Shown here one piece after another: positions 14,390 to 59,229 of a stretch of DNA of 60,198 nucleotides. Numbering within the stretch: the stretch's first letter is position 1; every line of letters starts with the position of its first letter. Position numbers and translations under genes: made by a program. The stretch lies in assembly GCA_018175315.1 (NCBI GenBank), contig GCA_018175315.1_4769.1, one strand, 5' to 3'. The notes below the pieces were generated by a model. The model saw only the letters and a list, made by a program, of their open reading frames with translations. It was not told the DNA's origin and ran no database searches. This DNA comes from a phage.

Positions 14390-14588
14390 ATATGTGGTTA
14401 TGTATTTTGTAATTGGCGCAATTATTGCGGCAATGACTTATTTCTTTTGTTGGAATAACTATGATTATGCGCTAGCCCATAAGAAACGTTGGGAGAAGAT
14501 TGTAAGTCTTCTATGTATACTCGCTTGCTGGCCAGTCACTATTATTGCGACCGCATATGATCAATACATGTACAGGAGACGCAAATGA
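14382..14588 (+). CDS. small membrane protein
   Basis: 68 aa, two hydrophobic segments; overlaps neighbours. Confidence 0.4.
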   Translation: MHEYVVMYFVIGAIIAAMTYFFCWNNYDYALAHKKRWEKIVSLLCILACWPVTIIATAYDQYMYRRRK

Positions 14589-14866
14589 TGGAATATCTAT
14601 TAGTTGTCGTTTCGCTATTTCTGATCATTGTTGTTATAATGACCGGAGATAGTAATGAGAAGGGCTTTACAGCAATGAGCAGGGCGTTATTACGCGCCCT
14701 TGCTGTAGCACTGCTTGGGACCAGCTTTGCTATGGCGTTTGGGATTGTAGACATCCCTAGCACCTATTATGGCTTTGTTAAAGTTCAACACCAACTCACT
14801 TATGCTACCGTCGTCGGATTGGGTGCTGTAACACTTGCAATCATGTCAGCTTTTCATAAGCGTTAA
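14585..14866 (+). CDS. small membrane protein
   Basis: 93 aa, hydrophobic segments; ATGA overlap with upstream gene. Confidence 0.45.
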   Translation: MMEYLLVVVSLFLIIVVIMTGDSNEKGFTAMSRALLRALAVALLGTSFAMAFGIVDIPSTYYGFVKVQHQLTYATVVGLGAVTLAIMSAFHKR

Positions 14867-14897
14867 AGAAAGGGGGCGTTTGCCCCCTTTTCTCTTC
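14867..14897. terminator. bidirectional rho-independent terminator between convergent blocks
   Basis: AAAGGGGGC-GTTT-GCCCCCTTT flanked by T-rich sequence on both strands. Confidence 0.6.
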
Positions 14898-15101
14898 TTA
14901 GAATATACGAAAGAAAGCACCGTATGGGTATACGCCAAAAGTATTGAAAACAGGCGGTGCAAAAGCATTCACAAACACAGGAGTTGGCGCTACTGGTTGA
15001 AAAGTTTTGCAATTACACGCTGCTTGAGCCAATTGCCCCTGAAGTATACCTGCTTGTGTTGCAGGACTGCCTAGACAGCAACGGTTAGTATTACCACACA
15101 T
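14898..15101 (-). CDS. small Cys-rich protein of unknown function
   Basis: AGGAGG RBS 6 nt before ATG; 67 aa, MCGNTNRCC N-terminus, aromatic/Pro-rich C-terminus. Confidence 0.5.
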   Translation of the reverse strand: MCGNTNRCCLGSPATQAGILQGQLAQAACNCKTFQPVAPTPVFVNAFAPPVFNTFGVYPYGAFFRIF

Positions 15102-15112
15102 AGTAGACCTCC

Positions 15113-15397
15113 TTAAAGGTCGCTTTCGTTATCCTGCTTGGAACTGGGTTTTTCAGCTTCAATCATCCCAAGTACCGCAATAACTTTAACAGCAATACGC
15201 TGAGCTAGACTGATTTGCTGCTGGGTTAATTTTCCGGTCGAAACCACAGTCATTAACCCGCTTAAGTTTCCAAGAGACTTAAAATCGCTGAATGCAGATT
15301 TCATAATTGTAAGTTGATCATGACCTTCGTCTGCTATAACATGAGCACGAATAGAAAGTCCTTCAACGACTTTATCAATACCTTCATTCTTCGTCAT
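15113..15397 (-). CDS. hypothetical protein
   Basis: 94-aa ORF in the accessory module. Confidence 0.5.
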   Translation of the reverse strand: MTKNEGIDKVVEGLSIRAHVIADEGHDQLTIMKSAFSDFKSLGNLSGLMTVVSTGKLTQQQISLAQRIAVKVIAVLGMIEAEKPSSKQDNESDL

Positions 15398-15914
15398 TTG
15401 GTTTCACCTTCTGCTCCGGTTTCTGAGGGACCGTTTGAGCGGTCTTTGGTTGCAGCACTTCCTGATCAATCATGGGTGGCCACGGGCTAATATGCTCGCG
15501 TGCTTCTACAGGCTGCTCCGGTTGCATACCAAGAAACTTACTAATAAAATCCCCTGCGAAGTCTGTACCATCGCTGACGTAAACATGCATACGATCAAGA
15601 TCTGATTGACTAATGGAGTTTGGAGCAATTGTAATCTTGAACTGGTGGAAGCCGACATACATCACATTCACGGGTCGTTCGATAGTGCCCGGCGTAGGAG
15701 GTATCACTCCCATAATCCAACAGTAATGAACCCTTCCATCACCCATAGGTTCACATCCAGCATTAAGCCAGCTCACCTTCTGGTGTGGGAACATGGTAGT
15801 TGAATCGGTAGCGTCCCGACGTAACGTCCAATCAACACCGCCCATGTTGATGGAGTTTTTCGGTTTCATCCCGTTGAACTGGGTTACGCCCATTCCTGCG
15901 TTTACGTTTTGCAT
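15384..15914 (-). CDS. hypothetical protein
   Basis: 176-aa ORF, no recognisable motif. Confidence 0.5.
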   Translation of the reverse strand: MQNVNAGMGVTQFNGMKPKNSINMGGVDWTLRRDATDSTTMFPHQKVSWLNAGCEPMGDGRVHYCWIMGVIPPTPGTIERPVNVMYVGFHQFKITIAPNSISQSDLDRMHVYVSDGTDFAGDFISKFLGMQPEQPVEAREHISPWPPMIDQEVLQPKTAQTVPQKPEQKVKPNDEE

Positions 15915-15929
15915 GTCGGCTTCCTATTC

Positions 15930-16298
15930 TTACATATCTTTCATTTTTTGAAGAGCGCAAGTACAAGCTGCGGCAAGATCAGTCAACTCTTTCATGATCC
16001 CTGCGCGGTCGCCTTCTTTCTTACACTCCATTAATTCGCGGTATTCCATTTCAACGATGGACATCATACCGCCGGGCTTGTCGTGGTACGCCGCCCACGT
16101 ATGCGGAGGTTCTTCCATCCGGTCAAGAACATTTGACATAGCTGCCATATGTTCATGATCTCGAGCATAAGAGTGAGCATGTTTATATTCCTCTTTCTCA
16201 TGTTCATGGTGGTGCTCACCTACGCTAATGCGAGGTAAAGCAACCTTAGGCAATTTGACCCGTGGCATTCCCATCGTTGCAATTTTAATGTGACTCAT
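15930..16298 (-). CDS. His-rich protein of unknown function
   Basis: AGAGGT RBS; His/Glu cluster VGEHHHEHEKEEYKHAHSYARDHEH. Confidence 0.5.
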   Translation of the reverse strand: MSHIKIATMGMPRVKLPKVALPRISVGEHHHEHEKEEYKHAHSYARDHEHMAAMSNVLDRMEEPPHTWAAYHDKPGGMMSIVEMEYRELMECKKEGDRAGIMKELTDLAAACTCALQKMKDM

Positions 16299-16369
16299 GA
16301 TAGTACCTCTGTTAAAAGCGCCCCAAGCGGAGGAGCGAAAGGCGCTTTAGTTTAACCACACTTCAACGA

Positions 16370-17077
16370 TTAGCAGCAGCCCGTCGGAGGAGTCGGAGGA
16401 GTTGGCAGTTTAAAGTTAACTAACTGCTCAACCTGATTGATCTTACAGGTAAGACCAGCCGTCTGCGCCAACTGAGAGTTTGCAAAGCGAGCTTCCTGCA
16501 ACTGGGACTTCAGGTCACAGATCAGAACTGCTTGCGCCTGTGCGTGCTGGTCACGGATCAGCGCACGGGTAGCTTCAGCTTGACGCTCGATGTTCAGGTT
16601 GGTTTCGCAGCAACACTTCTGAGCTTCTAACTGAGCCTGGAAGGAGCGGGTAATGTTAGCTGCTTCGTTGTTACACAGAGCCGCGAGCACTTGGCTTGTG
16701 CCGCTCTGGATCTGCGTGTTCAGACCAGCAAAACCCTGAACGGAAGCCAGCATGTTTTGAGTGTTCTGCTGAGTAATACCGTTATAAGTAGAAGCAGCGG
16801 AGCGCTCAACAGTCAGGTTAGTACCGTTCTGCCCCTGAATGGTCTGAAGAGTACCGTTGTTGATAGCTTGCAGAATTGCGTTGGTGTCAACAGAAGCCTG
16901 CACTTCCACCGGACCAGCGAAGTTACCGCGACCACCCCAACCACCATTGCCGCCCCAACCATTACCGATCCAGGAACCAATTAAGCCACCGATCGCGCCG
17001 CCGATACCAGCCGCACCAGCTTCACCACCGAAACCGTCGCCACCAAGATTAGTAGGTAAAAGAGTCATGTCAGACAT
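16370..17077 (-). CDS. Gly-rich protein (Gly-rich N-terminus, Q/N/T-rich middle, Cys-rich C-terminus)
   Basis: GGAG RBS before ATG at 17077 (ORF track begins at an upstream alternative start 17206); GGDGFGGEAGAAGIGGAIGG...GNGWGGNGGWGG; ends PTPPTPPTGCC. Confidence 0.55.
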   Translation of the reverse strand: MSDMTLLPTNLGGDGFGGEAGAAGIGGAIGGLIGSWIGNGWGGNGGWGGRGNFAGPVEVQASVDTNAILQAINNGTLQTIQGQNGTNLTVERSAASTYNGITQQNTQNMLASVQGFAGLNTQIQSGTSQVLAALCNNEAANITRSFQAQLEAQKCCCETNLNIERQAEATRALIRDQHAQAQAVLICDLKSQLQEARFANSQLAQTAGLTCKINQVEQLVNFKLPTPPTPPTGCC

Positions 17078-17206
17078 AGGAAAATCTCCATATATGGATT
17101 TGTTAAGCGGATGTAACCAACTGGTTACGAAGTAAAGCATACCCCTTAACATGCTTTTTACAATGATCCAAATGTAAAGATTTTGTAAATTGGGATTGAC
17201 AGTCAA

Positions 17207-17235
17207 TAAAAAGCGCGCCCGAAGACGCGCTTGAA
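17207..17235 (-). terminator. rho-independent terminator downstream of tail-fibre gene
   Basis: Minus strand stem AAGCGCG / CGCGCTT followed by TTTTT; adjacent perfect palindrome ATTGACAGTCAAT at 17195-17207. Confidence 0.5.
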
Positions 17236-17246
17236 GTTAGATGTGG

Positions 17247-19013
17247 TTATGGAAGATCTGCAGTCTGTGAATTGTTTAGATTAGAAATGAGTTCTTTTAG
17301 TTTCTTATTATCTTCTTCCAAAGATTCAATCCGTTTTATAAGTTCTTGCACCACATGCATCGTATCCAAAAGCATAGGTGTTGTGTCAAGTTCCTTTTGT
17401 TCAACAATCTCTCCTGGATTACTGCCAACATATTTACGCGTCTTAACATATAAAGGCTCAACAACCTCTGCTTGCTGTGCAATCACGCCATGCCGAACTC
17501 GATTTTGTTCGTCATTGTCATAAATGAACTCTACAAATTCCAGACCTTGGATATTAGAGTATGACTTTTCAACTCCAACAGGGGCGATGCCGTGTTTTAC
17601 ACGTGAGTCAGAAGTACCATTTTTTGTATAACTAAAGTTCCCGTAATCAGTTGAACAATTTATTTGCCCATCAATGTCAAAAAAGTAACGGCAGAATTTT
17701 CCAGCGTCTCCACCGATAACTACACAGGCTTTGCCAAATGCGTTATTACCTGGAATATACATGTGATATCCAACCTTTGTTGGATATCCATTAGGTCTGA
17801 TGCCGCCGATAGAATAGCCGCGCACCAGCGTATCTGATCCACTCTCGATTGCCACCCTGTCCATTCCGTTAGTGGTCAAGTTAGGCCCGTCGGCATCCGT
17901 TATCCCGTTCCACGTACCAATAGGCGTATACATGCGGAATGGGTTGACCTTCCCTGACTGTCGAAAGTCTACCGTACCATCATCATAAAACTTGTAGGAG
18001 TGTTTAGCGGAGCCTTCAGATTCTATAACAGCCGCAGTATAAGAACCCCAGGTAGTATCAGAGTATAGACGAGCAAACCGCTTACCTGCTGGGTTGGAGT
18101 ATTCCGATACTACTTTACCACCACGAACGGAGGTATTCTGCGGAGGTGTGCTACTATCTGCATTCTTAACACTCCACGAGGTATTCGCAGCTACGAACCC
18201 ACCAGAAGCACGAATTACCCACACACCGACAAAGTTTCGTGTAAGAATCTCATCTGTTGATGCTCCGTAAATTTGACTTGAACGTGAGGCGTCAAAATTT
18301 AGCGTGTTACAACGGCCAGTAAGCGGTGTCTTACCTGCGGGGATGACATCCCCATCCCCGTTAGGAAAAAGCATATTATCAGAAAAGAATGCACCTCTAG
18401 CAGCAGAACCGAATACCTGAGCATACGTACCTCCTGAGTAACTAGGAACAGCACCAGTAATATTAGGTGCAGCAGATTCAAATAGCTGACCATTTGCATT
18501 ACTATTCCCGCCATCACCACGACCATAAAGAGCGCGTATTGATCCCTCCTGCACCCCATTCTTGTCTGGAACACGAAAAGTTGTTGTTCCATTTCCTGAT
18601 GAGTATTTACCACGCTGGAATTTATCAGCTAACCAAACTGAATCATCTATAGCCCCAACCATTTGTGCATACGCCCAGAGTTCAGGCCAATCCGCTCGAT
18701 TCAATAACTGTCCATCAGAAACGACTTCATACGGTTGAATATATGCACGACTGTCGCGTAAGTGGAAGTCACCAACACCATAATTCATGACGCCATTCAT
18801 AGTGGGTCCAACTATACCAGTATTAATCTTATTTTCTACCCAACGTTTGGTTGCAGCATCATAGTCCATAACAGGATCCCCAGCAAGCGGAGTAGATCCA
18901 ATAGGTCGCACGTTTAACCACGCTGCTGCGCGGTCCGCTAAGTCGCTCAGGTTTGCACTCTTTTTAAGAGAGTTCTTGATGTCAGCCGGAATATTTGTTA
19001 CTTGCTTAGTCAT
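17247..19013 (-). CDS. tail fibre protein with C-terminal intramolecular-chaperone-like domain
   Basis: GGGAG RBS before ATG 19013; Gly/Ser/Asn-rich beta-type composition; C-terminal SDSRVKHG resembles the S-D-x-R-x-K self-cleavage site of fibre chaperone domains, followed by coiled-coil tail. Confidence 0.65.
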   Translation of the reverse strand: MTKQVTNIPADIKNSLKKSANLSDLADRAAAWLNVRPIGSTPLAGDPVMDYDAATKRWVENKINTGIVGPTMNGVMNYGVGDFHLRDSRAYIQPYEVVSDGQLLNRADWPELWAYAQMVGAIDDSVWLADKFQRGKYSSGNGTTTFRVPDKNGVQEGSIRALYGRGDGGNSNANGQLFESAAPNITGAVPSYSGGTYAQVFGSAARGAFFSDNMLFPNGDGDVIPAGKTPLTGRCNTLNFDASRSSQIYGASTDEILTRNFVGVWVIRASGGFVAANTSWSVKNADSSTPPQNTSVRGGKVVSEYSNPAGKRFARLYSDTTWGSYTAAVIESEGSAKHSYKFYDDGTVDFRQSGKVNPFRMYTPIGTWNGITDADGPNLTTNGMDRVAIESGSDTLVRGYSIGGIRPNGYPTKVGYHMYIPGNNAFGKACVVIGGDAGKFCRYFFDIDGQINCSTDYGNFSYTKNGTSDSRVKHGIAPVGVEKSYSNIQGLEFVEFIYDNDEQNRVRHGVIAQQAEVVEPLYVKTRKYVGSNPGEIVEQKELDTTPMLLDTMHVVQELIKRIESLEEDNKKLKELISNLNNSQTADLP

Positions 19014-19015
19014 AA

Positions 19016-19291
19016 TTACGCCCACTCCCTTAAAGGTTGCTCAAGAATAACACTGTGGTTACTGTACTGGGTAAAATCAAACGAGTCATCAATAACCCTT
19101 ACGTTCACATAATACCCTTCATTTTGAATATATGTTGGTTCGTCTGATAAACTTTCAACTTCTGTAAAGGTGTATCCTATTACATCAAGCATTATTTGGT
19201 TTTGCAAAGTTTCATTGCCTTCCCAATCAATGACCACAAGAAAATCTTCAAACGCCTTCTTGTCCTTAAATTTCATAGTTAAGTCTTTCAT
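19016..19291 (-). CDS. hypothetical protein between tail-fibre genes (possible fibre assembly factor)
   Basis: 91 aa with GGAG RBS; start overlaps upstream stop. Confidence 0.45.
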   Translation of the reverse strand: MKDLTMKFKDKKAFEDFLVVIDWEGNETLQNQIMLDVIGYTFTEVESLSDEPTYIQNEGYYVNVRVIDDSFDFTQYSNHSVILEQPLREWA

Positions 19292-21417
19292 ACAGACTCC
19301 TTCAATTCACGGTCAGTCAATGCTTTATGCCATACTCGAAGATTTCTGACATGCCCGAATAAATGGCGCTGCCCCGTTGTTGTCTGACCGCCAATACGAA
19401 TGGTTGCAGAGCTTTGAATATAGGACCATGTGGCTTTCTTTTCGCTGGATATACGCCCGTTACTTACTGCACATGTCATCTGATCTTCCTTCACACGCAT
19501 CCCCATAACCATTTTTTCAAGCGATGCGTTTTCGTTTACCCGTCTGTTAGCTCCTCCAATATCGCAATAAGGAAATCCGTCGTAATCTGCTGAAGAACCG
19601 AAGCCAAGAATAATAGCCGCTCCGGTTTGATGACCGCCGGTATCAAAAACACGCGGCGCTGCATTTGGCGTTTTATACCAGTTCTTATGTACCTCACAAA
19701 GAACCGTAAAAGGAAGATTATAAAGATTATTCTTAATTGGAACTGTAACTATATCGCTTGCGCGGGTCGCCGCCGTCGCTCCTGATATAATAAAAGATGA
19801 TACACAAGGCCCATCTTCTACTTGTGGGGTGGCCAGATAAATATAGTCACCAGATACGGTTGCCCCGCTCTGCTTAGGAGAATACTGTATCTGAGAGCCT
19901 ATTTTTAACTCCCCATCAATTGCCTGAATTGTTGCCTCTGCAAAAATCCATCCGGTAGCTTCGTCCTTTCTGACTCTCGCTGTAATCCTTGAGGCAGCAC
20001 CGCCTGTCATATTAATTTCAAGCGTTTGTGTATCAATATACGCATCACCAAGAAAAGTTGTTGCGCTACCGTCATATTTATCAAACCGGATACGCAACCT
20101 TACCTGCAGTTCTGTTTTAAAACGACATGAGGTTGTCACGTATTTATTATAGCCTGAGACATCAACTGACTTTGTTGCAGCAATTGATGCCATATTAATG
20201 GCTGAGGTTTGCCCAATCAGAGAATCGTTACAGACGAACTTTCCATAGGTAAAACCAAAACTATCCTTCCCGGTTTCGGGAACATCCATATTTGACGATC
20301 GCCCCCAACTGGCAGGGTTTTCCGAATTGAGCATGTAGTTTGTTCTTTGCCCCTCAATAAGCAGGCCATCACGTTCAAATCGTGGCTCGTCAACTTCAGC
20401 AACGGTTAATACTCCTGATTTATTAATGTATGTTGCACCTGACGCCCGTTTGAAATCCACAACCTTATCGGACGGCATTTTAATAACATCATCACCTACA
20501 GTTATTTGCTTATAGCCTGGTGCAAACCCCGCTAACATATCCAGTGAGTCGTTGAAAGGAATCCATACATCAGGGAAAGGTTGAATTTCTGGAGCATTGT
20601 TAGCAGCAGATTCCGCACGGTCTGCTTCCGTCTTTGCGCGGTCTGCGTCGTTTTTAGCTGCGGTTGCGCTTGTACCTGCGTTACCTGCTTGTTGTCCCGC
20701 TTCGGTAGCGCTATTACTTGCTTGTGCAGCAGACGCGGCAGCGGCGTCTTTTAGCGCGGTAGTTTCGGACACAGCAGCGTCCTTAATTGCTTGCGTCTCG
20801 CTTATTGCGCTATTCTTAATAGTCTGTGTATCCGACTTTAATTTTTCAACATCCTTTTTGAGATTTGTTATTGTGGTTACAGCTTGGGTTGCAGTGTTAG
20901 CAGAGCCCGCAGCACTGGACTGGGCTTGTTTAGCTGCATCCGCGTTAGTTTTAGAATCATTCTTATATGTAAGCGCTTCACTTGCAGAAGAAGCAGCCGC
21001 CGCTTTACTATTACGTGCGTCGGTAGCATCTGAGTTTGCTGCGGCAGCAGAGCGTCCAGCTTGCAGAGCATATTCTTCAGAGTTAGCCACAAGTTGCTGG
21101 ACTTGTTTGATAACATCTGGAGTTAATTCTTCTGGAGCCCAGTTAATTAAATATCCGTTCAGCGAACCTTCAGGACTGTCACCATAAATAACAATCTCCC
21201 CAGCTTTATAAGGCTCAACACCTTGAGGTCCGATGATTACTTTATAACGACCAGTCTGGACAGTTACATTATACGCACCGGATCCGTCAGTGCGGAATAT
21301 AGCCTCACTACCATTAAGAACGGTAATTGTGTTCCCTTTAGCAATAAGAGCAACTGTAGCGTTGATGATTGGTTTATTTAAACCATCCATCAGAATACCA
21401 TGTAGACGAGTTGCCAT
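19288..21417 (-). CDS. tail fibre / receptor-binding protein with C-terminal lectin (LamG)-like domain
   Basis: AGAGGT RBS before ATG 21417; beta-rich N-terminal domain, Ala/Ser-rich coiled middle, C-terminal region lectin-like by composition. Confidence 0.6.
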   Translation of the reverse strand: MATRLHGILMDGLNKPIINATVALIAKGNTITVLNGSEAIFRTDGSGAYNVTVQTGRYKVIIGPQGVEPYKAGEIVIYGDSPEGSLNGYLINWAPEELTPDVIKQVQQLVANSEEYALQAGRSAAAANSDATDARNSKAAAASSASEALTYKNDSKTNADAAKQAQSSAAGSANTATQAVTTITNLKKDVEKLKSDTQTIKNSAISETQAIKDAAVSETTALKDAAAASAAQASNSATEAGQQAGNAGTSATAAKNDADRAKTEADRAESAANNAPEIQPFPDVWIPFNDSLDMLAGFAPGYKQITVGDDVIKMPSDKVVDFKRASGATYINKSGVLTVAEVDEPRFERDGLLIEGQRTNYMLNSENPASWGRSSNMDVPETGKDSFGFTYGKFVCNDSLIGQTSAINMASIAATKSVDVSGYNKYVTTSCRFKTELQVRLRIRFDKYDGSATTFLGDAYIDTQTLEINMTGGAASRITARVRKDEATGWIFAEATIQAIDGELKIGSQIQYSPKQSGATVSGDYIYLATPQVEDGPCVSSFIISGATAATRASDIVTVPIKNNLYNLPFTVLCEVHKNWYKTPNAAPRVFDTGGHQTGAAIILGFGSSADYDGFPYCDIGGANRRVNENASLEKMVMGMRVKEDQMTCAVSNGRISSEKKATWSYIQSSATIRIGGQTTTGQRHLFGHVRNLRVWHKALTDRELKESV

Positions 21418-21541
21418 TTTTACCTCTTGTTTCGCAGAGTTGATCAATTAATGGATGCACTATGGCATATAAATATGGTAAATTAAATTAGAATATAAAA
21501 CAATATTGTCTATCATCTTTAACCACATTGTTGGAGTAATT

Positions 21542-40353: not shown

Positions 40354-40659
40354 CTATTTAGGCTGAATATAATTGCTTGATCCTACAAAATCAAGCGAAA
40401 CATTTTCAGCTTCATAGCGTATGATTTCCTTAACCCTCAGTTTACATTCAGTCAGAGCTGTTTCTGTATCCTGCAAACGTTGGATAATGTCCCTTGTATA
40501 AACCAAAGGATATTTATCAACTTCCCGACATTCTACCAACAGATGGGCCGGAAGTTTTATCTTCACTATCTGCGGCGGTGGTGGAGGTTGTATCTCCGTC
40601 GAGCAGCCTGCGCAAATCATCAGGAACACGCTCATTAAGATAAGCTTTGACGTCGGCAT
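40354..40659 (-). CDS. o-spanin (Rz1-like outer-membrane lipoprotein)
   Basis: GGAG RBS; signal/lipobox-like LMICAGCS followed by Pro-rich PPPPPQ; gene starts inside the i-spanin gene in another frame. Confidence 0.7.
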   Translation of the reverse strand: MPTSKLILMSVFLMICAGCSTEIQPPPPPQIVKIKLPAHLLVECREVDKYPLVYTRDIIQRLQDTETALTECKLRVKEIIRYEAENVSLDFVGSSNYIQPK

Positions 40660-40993
40660 TGCTTTTCTCCAGTGCTTTTAATTTGTCCTGAAGCAACCTG
40701 TGGTTATGTTGCTCACTTTCAATCGCTGAAGCCAATTTTCGATAGGATTCAGTATCCTTCTCCCGTTGGGATGCAAGAAATACAACAGCTTCGCCCAGCT
40801 TTGCATTGTCCCGTTCTACAACGGTTAGCCTTTGCTCAGCATGATTTAAATTAGTTTTGCTGAGCTCGTTCTGTGACCACAAGTATGCAGACACCCCACA
40901 TAAAAACACAACCGCGCCGATCATCAAATACTCGATAAACAGACGCGGTTTAGTTTTTATAAAACCGAAGAAGTTATTTAGAATCGTTTTCAT
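40517..40993 (-). CDS. i-spanin (Rz-like inner-membrane protein)
   Basis: N-terminal transmembrane segment then coiled coil; overlapped by the o-spanin gene. Confidence 0.7.
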   Translation of the reverse strand: MKTILNNFFGFIKTKPRLFIEYLMIGAVVFLCGVSAYLWSQNELSKTNLNHAEQRLTVVERDNAKLGEAVVFLASQREKDTESYRKLASAIESEQHNHRLLQDKLKALEKSNADVKAYLNERVPDDLRRLLDGDTTSTTAADSEDKTSGPSVGRMSGS

Positions 40994-41318
40994 GTTTGCA
41001 GTCCCCTGAATCGAGTTTGATCCCTGTCCGTGAAGCTATAAGCGACGTTAGGGCTTTTAGCGTAGCACGTGAACCTGCCCAAGCAAATAGGCCAGCAAGG
41101 CCAAAAGCGAACCAAAGGCTGATGTTAAACTCCCTGTAGATCGCATACATTATAACGCCAAAGAAAGCGGCAGATAAGCCTTCAAGAAATGCAATGCTTG
41201 CCCGTACTTTCTTACCAGCGTCTATTGTACGCATGACATAACCGAGAGCTCCCCCAATGAGAGAGATAAACGCAAACCCCGCTAGAACTGCCCAATGTTC
41301 GTTGGGTGAATTGAACAT
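40974..41318 (-). CDS. holin (putative)
   Basis: 114 aa with 3 hydrophobic segments and charged C-terminus; adjacent to spanins. Confidence 0.55.
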   Translation of the reverse strand: MFNSPNEHWAVLAGFAFISLIGGALGYVMRTIDAGKKVRASIAFLEGLSAAFFGVIMYAIYREFNISLWFAFGLAGLFAWAGSRATLKALTSLIASRTGIKLDSGDCKHENDSK

Positions 41319-41354: not shown

Positions 41355-41792
41355 TTAAAGTACCATTGCAATAGCGCGGTTAATTACGTCGTCGGTATAG
41401 GGCATCATGCCATTTTCATGACGAATGATTGCTTTCACCAATCCTGACATAATTGCCTTGTCGAAGACATTAATTGGATCGTTAGGTTGAACACCAATTG
41501 CTTTGGCAACAGAGCGAATATACGCTTCCGTATCGTTTTCGTTAGGCGGAGCCCAGCGAGCGATAATTTCACGTACAGTGTCGATGTTTTTCTTACCCAC
41601 ATTGGGCAAGCCTTCACGTTTGGTGTAGTTTGTCAGGATTTTCGCTAGTGCACGAATGCCGTAAATCGGTTGCGTAAATTGAGCAAAAGATTTATCGGTT
41701 CTCTTATCAGCAGGAACTAAGCCCTGCCAATTATCACCCCAGCGAATATTGCCTGGATTGTTATTACGAATACCACGAGGTTGAAGTGCCAT
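41355..41792 (-). CDS. putative endolysin (by lysis-cassette position)
   Basis: GGAGGAGG RBS before ATG 41792 (ORF track's longer ORF lacks an RBS); motif RGIRNNNPGNIRWG; immediately upstream of holin. Confidence 0.4.
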   Translation of the reverse strand: MALQPRGIRNNNPGNIRWGDNWQGLVPADKRTDKSFAQFTQPIYGIRALAKILTNYTKREGLPNVGKKNIDTVREIIARWAPPNENDTEAYIRSVAKAIGVQPNDPINVFDKAIMSGLVKAIIRHENGMMPYTDDVINRAIAMVL

Positions 41793-58500: not shown

Positions 58501-59229
58501 ATGGCCATTGAAATTAAAATGTCTTCGCAAGTTGTGCAGGACACAGGTGTTAAAATTCTGGTTTACGGTGAAGCGGGTATGGGTAAAACCAGCCTTGTAG
58601 CCACATTGCCTAAACCAATTTTAATCAGCGCAGAATCCGGTCTGTTGTCTATTGCAGCGGAAAACCTTAACCGTGTTTATGGTAACATGGGTTTGCCCAT
58701 CGTTTACGATATTCCGGTAATTGAAGTGAAATGTCTGGAAGACGTTGAAGCGGCTTATCAGTGGTGCGTAACTCCAGCTAACCAGCAGTATTTCGATTCT
58801 ATTGCGCTTGACAGCTTGAGCGAAATTGCTGAACAATGTTTAAACAACGCGAAAAAGGGAACGAAAGATCCTCGTCAAGCTTATGGTACTTTGCTTGAAA
58901 AGATGCAAGATCTGATCCGTAAATTTCGCGATATTCCTGGCAAACATGTTTATATGTCTGCTAAAATGGGTAAAGACAAAGATGAAGTCTCCGGTGTTAC
59001 CGCGTATGCTCCATCTATGCCTGGATCCAAATTGGGGCAAATGCTCCCTTACTTCTTCGACGAAGTATTTCGTCTGAATGTAAATAAGGATCAGCAAGGT
59101 AACTCGTATCGTTACTTGCAAACTCAACCGGACTTTAATACAATCGCTAAGGATCGTTCGGGACGTTTAGATGCGGTTGAAGTCCCACACTTAGGTTCTG
59201 TTATCAACAAAATGAAAGGTATCAACTAA
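58501..59229 (+). CDS. Sak4-like RecA-fold ATPase (recombination/annealing)
   Basis: Walker A YGEAGMGKTS about 20 aa from N-terminus; 242 aa; followed by SSB-like gene. Confidence 0.55.
   Translation: MAIEIKMSSQVVQDTGVKILVYGEAGMGKTSLVATLPKPILISAESGLLSIAAENLNRVYGNMGLPIVYDIPVIEVKCLEDVEAAYQWCVTPANQQYFDSIALDSLSEIAEQCLNNAKKGTKDPRQAYGTLLEKMQDLIRKFRDIPGKHVYMSAKMGKDKDEVSGVTAYAPSMPGSKLGQMLPYFFDEVFRLNVNKDQQGNSYRYLQTQPDFNTIAKDRSGRLDAVEVPHLGSVINKMKGIN

Follow-up and report, generated by a model that had tools for sequence, protein, structure and literature searches.

A dispensable accessory cassette beside the lateral tail-fibre gene of a Seuratvirus, with a probable role in lysis timing

A five-gene module at the end of the tail-fibre locus

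We analysed a stretch of phage DNA of 60,198 nucleotides (GenBank assembly GCA_018175315.1, contig GCA_018175315.1_4769.1; hereafter, the window), and in particular a module of five minus-strand genes, designated g1 to g5, that follows the lateral tail-fibre locus (Table 1). The window is the genome of a virulent CAjan/Seurat-like coliphage of the genus Seuratvirus (Queuovirinae), 97–98% identical to phages SA80RD, CAjan and CSP1. The region at 14700–17400 matches 73 phage records, the best of which correspond to the Seuratvirus phages SA80RD, CAjan, slur01, Greed, SeppeHuegi and CSP1 (96–98% identity); the DNA of the module is 96.6–98% identical to that of CSP1 and CAjan, and g1–g5 are gp21–gp25 of the latter. 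The module occupies the junction of the late tail genes with the convergently transcribed replication and deazaguanine genes.

An earlier note on this DNA had described five co-oriented genes with ribosome-binding sites, and all of them are genuine: the open reading frames (ORFs) were confirmed, a Shine-Dalgarno-like motif can be read directly from the sequence before each one, each product matches its own PHROG of unknown function with E values of 1e-47 to 1e-130, and all five are annotated as coding sequences in CAjan, SA80RD, CSP1 and the BASEL phages. The start codon of g1 is the ATG at 17077 (MSDMTLLPT...), which is invariant among homologues and is preceded by GGAG; the mechanically defined ORF begins further upstream, at a TTG. 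The compositions given in that note likewise agree with our counts, with g1 being rich in Gly and in Gln/Asn and having a Cys-rich C-terminus (31 G, 25 Q, 21 N and 8 Cys, all the Cys within the C-terminal 100 residues), g2 rich in His and Glu (11 H and 14 E in 122 aa) and g5 rich in Cys (5 in 67 aa). Scans against Pfam, NCBIfam, PADLOC and Rfam retrieved nothing above threshold for the g1–g5 proteins or for the RNA region. The five-gene region is a real, dispensable accessory cassette and, given the lysis delay shown for near-identical copies of g1 and g2 in CSP1, in all likelihood neither a toxin nor a part of the virion.

Table 1. Features of the module, its surroundings and the lysis cassette of the window
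Feature	Position	Strand	Description
Distal lateral tail-fibre protein	17247-19025	-	592 aa; C-terminal S74 intramolecular chaperone domain (Peptidase_S74, E = 5e-8); phrog_6921
Intrinsic terminator ending the lateral tail-fibre gene	17211-17232	-	9-bp stem with 6 GC pairs, T run; annotated in SA80RD
6-1-6 palindrome ATTGACAGTCAAT	17195-17207		13 nt; chance-level, not conserved
Putative g1 promoter	17136-17163	-	-35-like TTGTAA (17163-17158), 16-nt spacer, -10-like TATGCT (17141-17136); inferred
Stem-loop where the g1 mRNA is predicted to begin	17113-17128	-	GTAACC-AGTT-GGTTAC; conserved across diverse phages
g1	16370-17077	-	235 aa; phrog_9288; orthologue of CSP1_021
Terminator/attenuator hairpin between g1 and g2	~16314-16348	-	Directly after the g1 stop codon; annotated in SA80RD and Sasha
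g2	15930-16298	-	122 aa; phrog_9157; orthologue of CSP1_022
g3	15384-15914	-	176 aa; orthologue of CSP1_023
g4	15113-15397	-	94 aa; phrog_7239; last member of the conserved core cassette
g5	14898-15101	-	67 aa; Cys-rich; phrog_25697
Bidirectional terminator at the end of both the module and the convergent plus-strand genes	14868-14891	both	Annotated in SA80RD and Seurat
Convergent membrane protein	14585-14866	+	93 aa; phrog_15669, function unknown; three hydrophobic stretches by eye
Holin, proposed target	40977-41318	-	LydA/superfamily III type; 99% identical to CAjan gp89; PF16083, E = 4.8e-10
Endolysin	41358-41792
i-spanin-like gene	40520-40993

Orthologues of g1 and g2 suppress lysis in phage CSP1

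The function that near-identity predicts for g1 and g2, holin-directed suppression of lysis, is already published for their orthologues in CSP1, whose lysis-suppression genes were described by Kim & Ryu (J Microbiol 2025; PMC13577005). The deduced products of the window and of CSP1 are identical at 231 of 235 positions for g1, 121 of 122 for g2 and 174 of 176 for g3, and at all positions for g4 (94/94) and g5 (67/67); the order in CSP1 of a fibre gene (3081 bp) and genes of 708, 369 and 531 bp also agrees with CSP1_020 to CSP1_023 of that paper. CSP1_020, 021 and 022 and the window thus have in common the gene order, an S74-domain fibre upstream, a LydA-type holin and orthologous g1 and g2. 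They differ in that the fibre is a single protein of 1026 aa in CSP1 and is split into proteins of 719, 91 and 592 aa here, and in that the function of the genes in the window is a prediction.

A spontaneous deletion of 4,672 bp in CSP1, giving mutant CSP1C, takes out 021 and 022 along with the greater part of the fibre gene and of 023, and changes turbid plaques to clear ones with prompt lysis of the culture, leaving adsorption, latent period and burst unchanged (PMC13577005). Cells infected with wild type CSP1 are non-viable, unlysed and elongated (7.7 vs 2.1 μm), and release progeny slowly while intact, although chloroform frees it (PMC13577005). Lysis suppression was restored in trans only by 020, 021 and 022 together, without need for CSP1_023, and co-expression with holin and endolysin suppressed lysis (PMC13577005). 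Suppression occurs when the multiplicity of infection (MOI) is low, and it is overcome by extra holin or by dinitrophenol (DNP), but not by extra endolysin; for 021, which has one predicted transmembrane segment, a two-hybrid assay against the holin gave a signal, whereas the CSP1C fibre, as seen by electron microscopy, was restored by 020 alone (PMC13577005). Because of this last result, and because adsorption and burst are unchanged, g1–g3 have no role in the assembly or structure of the fibre, which bears out the proposal of the earlier note that these are not standard virion proteins. That note had also offered toxin-like, exclusion, host takeover and fibre accessory functions; none of them is the published suppression of lysis, to which host takeover comes closest.

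The paper by Kim & Ryu does not note the existence of a g1–g4 cassette, its spread across phages or its independence from the holin family. Likewise, a paper on phage P400 and a preprint on an E. coli HS phage make no mention of the cassette genes.

Predicted properties of the cassette proteins

The sole hydrophobic stretch of g1, residues 20–38 (AGAAGIGGAIGGLIGSWIG), is only weakly hydrophobic, with a Kyte-Doolittle score over 19 residues (KD19) of 1.27, a content of 68% in G/A/S/T and a repeated G-x-x-x-G spacing. Such a composition is typical of the weakly anchored, oligomerising segments known as signal-anchor-release (SAR) domains and glycine zippers, and the resemblance suggests that residues 20–38 might also be weakly anchored and oligomerise. 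This same stretch had been likened to the Gly-rich regions of colicins and microcins, a resemblance that turns out to be superficial, since it is a weakly hydrophobic membrane segment and g1 matches no colicin or microcin family in Pfam or NCBIfam. We also discarded g1 as a colicin or class II microcin on account of its size (235 aa) and of the lack of any exporter or immunity candidate among g2–g5.

Further along, g1 contains a long Q/N-rich helix, a Pro-rich C-terminus and a conserved CCC; its invariant cysteines, CCC (155–157) and C187 of an ICD motif, all fall after the hydrophobic segment (alignment A1). Two other types of sequence are informative on topology. Distant g1 homologues carry N-terminal extensions of ca. 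100 aa, lacking a signal peptide, before the transmembrane segment, and phage KurtStettler (Bas22; locus L002, 5670–7202) contains an ORF of 510 aa in which the S74-chaperone C-terminus of the fibre runs in frame into g1, starting at its residue 19, owing to a deletion that took the terminator and promoter together with the first 18 codons of g1. From the signal-less extensions, the position of the cysteines and the fusion to a cytoplasmic S74 domain, we infer that g1 is a single-pass inner-membrane protein with an N-in/C-out topology. Its Cys-bearing helical domain would then probably be periplasmic and form a disulfide-linked oligomer. The AlphaFold2 model consists of one long helix (residues 97–223) of low confidence, with a predicted local distance difference test (pLDDT) of 54, and could fit an oligomeric coiled coil; a profile search of the PDB with g1 retrieved chance-level hits only.

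In turn, the N-terminal half of g2 is variable and His-rich, and its C-terminal domain is helical and invariant (IVEMEYxELM ... KELTDLAAAC; alignment A3). Read by eye in the alignment, this domain displays the pattern E-x-x-E ... E-x-x-D, 16 residues apart, with E85, E88, E104 and D107 invariant, which together with its helical nature recalls the MazG and PRA-PH families. However, g2 scores 16 bits with PRA-PH, below the Pfam gathering threshold of 21.3. Sub-threshold matches to PRA-PH and to MazG occur in seven and two, respectively, of 32 g2 members (best E = 0.0011), and the conserved region spans about three helices, less than the full four-helix MazG domain. A PDB profile search with g2 did not retrieve MazG, its top hit being PA2G4, at chance level (E = 0.012). 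The label of putative pyrophosphatase that g2 bears in BASEL phages rests, therefore, on a similarity that is below threshold here, and g2 is best described as a putative cytoplasmic helical protein with a MazG-like acidic motif.

The earlier note had proposed structure prediction and profile searches for all five proteins. Structure models of g1 and g3 gave the low-confidence helix described above and, with confidence, a small beta-rich domain, and no recognisable family or fold was found for g3–g5. The beta-rich core of g3 (residues 21–127) is followed by a disordered Pro/Gln/Lys tail; its predicted fold has no structural neighbour beyond its own orthologues, and a PDB profile search gave no hit. 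No family with an assigned function was found for g4 or g5 in Pfam, NCBIfam and PHROG scans, where each matches its own PHROG only.

Distribution of the cassette and its natural losses

Homologues of g1 were found in 177 phage records, belonging to Seuratvirus, Nonagvirus, Sashavirus, Drexlerviridae (Hanrivervirus and others), Yersinia phages PY100 and P400, Edwardsiella phage eiAU and T5-like Epseptimavirus, as well as in 59 IMG/VR loci and in 125 clusters at 50% identity among 1.84 billion representative proteins. A prophage origin was discarded, as 185,579 species-representative bacterial genomes, scanned with narrow patterns, gave only two weak hits.

Using iterated hidden Markov models on six-frame ORFs from 68 loci, we found g1-g2-g3-g4 in the same order and strand in ca. 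40 of them, belonging to several phage groups, and g1–g3 in ca. 45, including relatives with ca. 30% identity. A g4 homologue comes after g3 in 40 loci; g5, on the contrary, appears in only 10, all from Seuratvirus or Sasha-like phages. With g5 being lineage-specific and the order of g1–g4 fixed, the conserved unit is therefore a four-gene cassette. As they are conserved together, g3 and g4 probably act in the same process as g1 and g2. In T5-like Epseptimavirus the g1 homologue stands alone, directly after a 661-aa fibre protein with an S74 domain; in the Salmonella phage polluks (locus L006, 3752–4342) it is present as two ORFs (123 and 67 aa), and in several other Epseptimavirus records two annotated hypothetical proteins lie beneath the g1 match.

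Several phages have lost parts of the module. For instance, gp21 of Seurat (locus L072, 3811–5619), annotated as a tail fiber protein, consists of the N-terminus of the fibre joined to the last 63 residues of g3; Seurat therefore has a deletion comparable to that of the clear-plaque mutant CSP1C, covering g1 and g2 as well as the C-terminus of the fibre and the greater part of g3. GottfriedDienst (locus L073, 5146–6307) has a fragmented fibre gene and no g1, and keeps g2–g5; g1 is split into two ORFs in SeppeHuegi (locus L001, 7670–8506), and VogelGryff matches only residues 1–182. The recorded isolation hosts of the BASEL phages are K-12. The comparison of related phages that had been suggested for this module thus revealed missing or broken copies in Seurat, GottfriedDienst and SeppeHuegi, and the module is clearly dispensable and prone to deletion.

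Transcription signals

The terminators reported at both ends of the module were confirmed: the one that ends the fibre gene folds with −15.5 kcal/mol (z = −3.3), and the bidirectional terminator folds strongly on both strands (z = −4.3 and −3.1). The perfect palindrome reported next to the former is indeed present, but carries no weight, because the window contains 14 such 6-1-6 palindromes for 14.7 expected and because close relatives (CSP1 and loci L014, L001 and L018) have it broken, reading ATTGGCTGTCAA; we thus discarded it as an operator or promoter.

Another hairpin, overlooked before, lies after g1. It is kept as AAGCGCC-loop-GGCGCTTTT in ca. 25 distinct cassettes, nearly all the enterobacterial ones, and in the window it has a long loop and an unexceptional local fold (z = −0.7). 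Since this hairpin is of the terminator type, the module would be transcribed as g1 alone and then g2–g5, instead of as one five-gene unit, and, as the ribosome-binding site of g2 leaves no space for a promoter ahead of it, g2–g5 would be reached solely by read-through. Therefore g1 looks like a transcription unit of its own. The idea of a separately regulated accessory module holds, but not as a unit of five genes, because the conserved core is g1–g4 and the terminator separates g1 from g2–g5.

Upstream of g1, a -10-like hexamer is followed, 6–8 nt on, by a 5-bp stem-loop in 18 diverse phage sequences. The stems vary and nevertheless stay complementary (GTAAC/GTTAC, GTAGC/GCTAC, GTGGC/GCCAC and GTAGTC/GACTAC), with compensatory changes from AU to GC at two positions. 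In an alignment of this element (A4), whose segments were picked by eye, 98.9% of the cells of the five pairs are paired and all five pairs have changed on both sides; none of 500 shuffles reached this pairing, and no slid register came near. A covariance model of the -10 hexamer plus hairpin gave 22 hits in 645 kb, 21 of which are the g1 5' site; these are mostly training sequences and hence no independent confirmation. Judging from this covariation the element appears well supported, and it matches no Rfam family. In the simplest reading, the g1 mRNA would start with this hairpin at its 5' end and be stabilised or regulated by it. The pattern GTAAC-N-GTTAC has one other match in the window, at 59099–59115 (+), apparently within a coding region according to a hand mapping of coordinates to CAjan, which we treat as probably due to chance.

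Linkage to the tail-fibre gene

The lateral-fibre locus of the window (17247–21447, minus strand) encodes a proximal protein of 719 aa, a 91-aa protein (phrog_1361) and the distal S74 protein, a three-part layout shared with KurtStettler; CAjan and CSP1 have, instead, a single fibre of ca. 1030 aa. In 26 of the 37 loci closest to that of the window, g1 is immediately preceded by a gene with an S74 domain, and no S74 ORF was found elsewhere in any locus. This adjacency spans genomes with differing layouts, such as Hanrivervirus, where the fibre gene follows the primase gene, and the T5-like polluks. The linkage of fibre and cassette is thus frequent and not obligatory. It could be functional, as the fibre requirement in CSP1 and the KurtStettler fusion suggest, or it could be recombinational, with conserved flanks allowing the swapping of fibres.

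On the other side of the module, homologues of the convergent 93-aa membrane protein also adjoin the cassette in three Sasha-like loci (L009, L012 and L013) whose wider genome context is unrelated, and the Sasha homologue is annotated with three transmembrane domains, N out and C in. It is possible that this protein is a sixth member of the module.

A proposed role in delaying lysis

We consider it probable that the region is an accessory lysis-timing cassette, in which CSP1-type g1 and g2, together with the fibre product, delay the triggering of the holin. The three products would act jointly, so that infected cells stay intact and release their progeny slowly. The g1 gene would be expressed from its own promoter, with the 5' stem-loop and a leaky terminator; given this leakiness, g1 would be made in excess over g2–g5, which are read by run-through. 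The Gly/Ala-rich segment would anchor g1 in the inner membrane, N-in/C-out, with its Cys-bearing helical domain in the periplasm, and g2 would act as a helical protein in the cytoplasm.

This arrangement has parallels in known systems. The antiholin RI of phage T4 is a small single-pass protein whose N-terminal segment is weakly hydrophobic and which has a periplasmic domain; it blocks the holin until collapse of the membrane potential releases the block. Likewise, g1 is a small single-pass protein with a weakly hydrophobic N-terminal segment and a predicted periplasmic domain, and the CSP1 block is also released by DNP (PMC13577005). However, g1 has no sequence similarity to RI, and its SAR behaviour is a prediction from its composition. 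In addition, lysis inhibition in T4 needs superinfection and RI acts alone, whereas in CSP1 suppression is seen at low MOI and three genes, that of the fibre among them, are required (PMC13577005). The holin of the window belongs to the same family (PF16083) as LydA of phage P1, and an analogy to LydB/LydA is also drawn by the CSP1 authors (PMC13577005); but lydB is beside lydA, whereas the module is 24 kb from the lysis cassette, and g1 shows no similarity to any described antiholin family in Pfam, NCBIfam or PHROG. Like g1 as predicted here, i-spanins of the lambda Rz type are anchored in the membrane by their N-terminus and have a long coiled coil in the periplasm, conserved cysteines and a C-terminus rich in Pro. 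Nevertheless, the phage has its own spanin beside the holin, and there is no lipobox gene in or next to g1. We thus discarded g1 as a spanin, because it lacks a lipoprotein partner, lies outside the lysis cassette and the CSP1-infected cells are elongated instead of spherical; this shape also indicates that the block in CSP1 precedes the spanin step.

Evaluation of the proposed and alternative roles

A number of observations weigh against the proposed delay of holin triggering. Functional evidence comes from one study on the sister phage CSP1, not from this sequence, and consists of plasmid complementation and one bacterial two-hybrid signal, without single-gene knockouts (PMC13577005). The requirement for the fibre gene in CSP1 is unexplained, and the fibre allele of the window is not that of CSP1_020: the fibre stop codon marks where DNA homology ceases, and the two proteins are similar in the S74 domain with E = 1e-10. 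Moreover, the cassette has no fibre neighbour in Sasha, where it lies between terL and the portal gene, in PY100, where it is among early genes, or in remote loci, which have no S74 neighbour. The structure model of g1 is poor (pLDDT 54), and a model that needs only g1 and g2 does not account for the conservation of g3 and g4. The main difficulty concerns the holin. Its family (PF16083) occurs in 94 records, following the Queuovirinae lineage and the Pseudomonas NP1-like phages and not the distribution of the g1 cassette, and was not detected in the Sasha, Hanrivervirus, Yersinia and T5-like carriers of g1. The CSP1C and CAjan holins are 93% identical, and those of Seuratvirus and Nonagvirus only 38–39%, whereas the g1 proteins of these two genera are ca. 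80% identical; across Seuratvirus, Nonagvirus, Sashavirus and Hanrivervirus, g1 identity is 70–87%. Such conservation without tracking the holin is unlike the prediction for a holin-specific binder, and agrees with a conserved target in the host, or a general one in the membrane, no less than with a specific contact with the holin. It is mainly for this reason that our confidence in the published mechanism is moderate.

These same data favour a role, possible if rather unlikely, in which the cassette hits a conserved function of the host envelope or energy metabolism (membrane potential, cell division or export of O-antigen/LPS), with the delay of the holin being indirect and the primary role being exclusion or the protection of progeny from re-adsorption, in the manner of the receptor-blocking genes that are placed beside receptor-binding genes. 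Besides g1 being far more conserved than the holin family and distributed independently of it, the cassette moves among unrelated genome contexts and, in siphophages, comes right after the lateral-fibre gene, including Drexlerviridae and T5-like genomes of differing layout; furthermore, CSP1-infected cells elongate, and collapse of suppression by DNP would be expected if membrane potential were the variable (PMC13577005). On the other hand, a two-hybrid signal was obtained between CSP1_021 and the holin, and extra holin relieves the suppression (PMC13577005). Moreover, the phenotype appears on K-12, a host without O-antigen, and there is neither a known host partner nor a family or fold match pointing to any specific host target.

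Two further roles fare worse. It is very unlikely that the cassette is toxin, bacteriocin or anti-defence cargo, with g1 as a Gly-rich membrane-active toxin or microcin-like protein and g2 as a MazG-like pyrophosphatase removing a signalling or defence nucleotide. The glycine-zipper-like segment of g1, the acidic pattern kept in g2 with its sub-threshold matches, and the accessory, deletion-prone character of the genes would agree with it, but there is no match to colicin, microcin, toxin or PADLOC families, the body of g1 is a predicted coiled coil and has no partner for export or immunity, g2 is below the Pfam cut-off with only some three helices conserved, and the phenotype of CSP1 is a delay in lysis and neither toxicity nor an altered host range (PMC13577005). 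As for structural or assembly accessories of the lateral fibre, such as a chaperone, an anchor or a fibre-tip protein, the adjacency of the fibre gene in 26 of 37 close loci, the label of the KurtStettler fusion in BASEL (putative lateral tail fiber chaperone) and a match of the g3 C-terminus to a tail-fibre PHROG initially speak for them. Still, that match is accounted for by the deletion fusion in gp21 of Seurat, the cassette is away from fibre genes in Sasha and PY100, and g1 is a predicted membrane protein. Since, in addition, the fibre has its own S74 intramolecular chaperone and CSP1C recovers its fibres with the fibre gene alone, having kept its adsorption and burst (PMC13577005), we discarded g1–g3 as assembly chaperones; the whole idea is largely refuted and extremely improbable.

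A broader and decidedly speculative reading, to which we give little credence, would have g1–g4 as a widespread, horizontally mobile system by which virulent enterobacterial phages tie the timing of lysis to the maturation of their tail fibres. The S74 fragment released at fibre trimerisation would be a cytoplasmic signal, read by the invariant N-terminus of g1 and by g2, and the periplasmic Cys-rich coiled coil of g1 would act on a conserved envelope or energy target of the host and not on a particular holin. Under this reading, the S74-g1 fusion of KurtStettler would be a natural Rosetta stone for the contact between both proteins.

Implications for phage biology

The timing of lysis sets the fitness of phages and the behaviour of therapeutic ones, and cultures show marked differences between a phage with turbid plaques and slow release and its deletion variant with clear plaques. 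The cassette is common in the E. coli, Salmonella, Shigella and Yersinia phages of collections and cocktails, and is easily lost on laboratory hosts, as occurred in Seurat, CSP1C and several BASEL phages; its recognition explains differences in plaques and lysis between near-identical isolates. If the role proposed here is correct, as we consider probable, the cassette would also represent an unusual antiholin-like system, in that it needs a tail-fibre gene.

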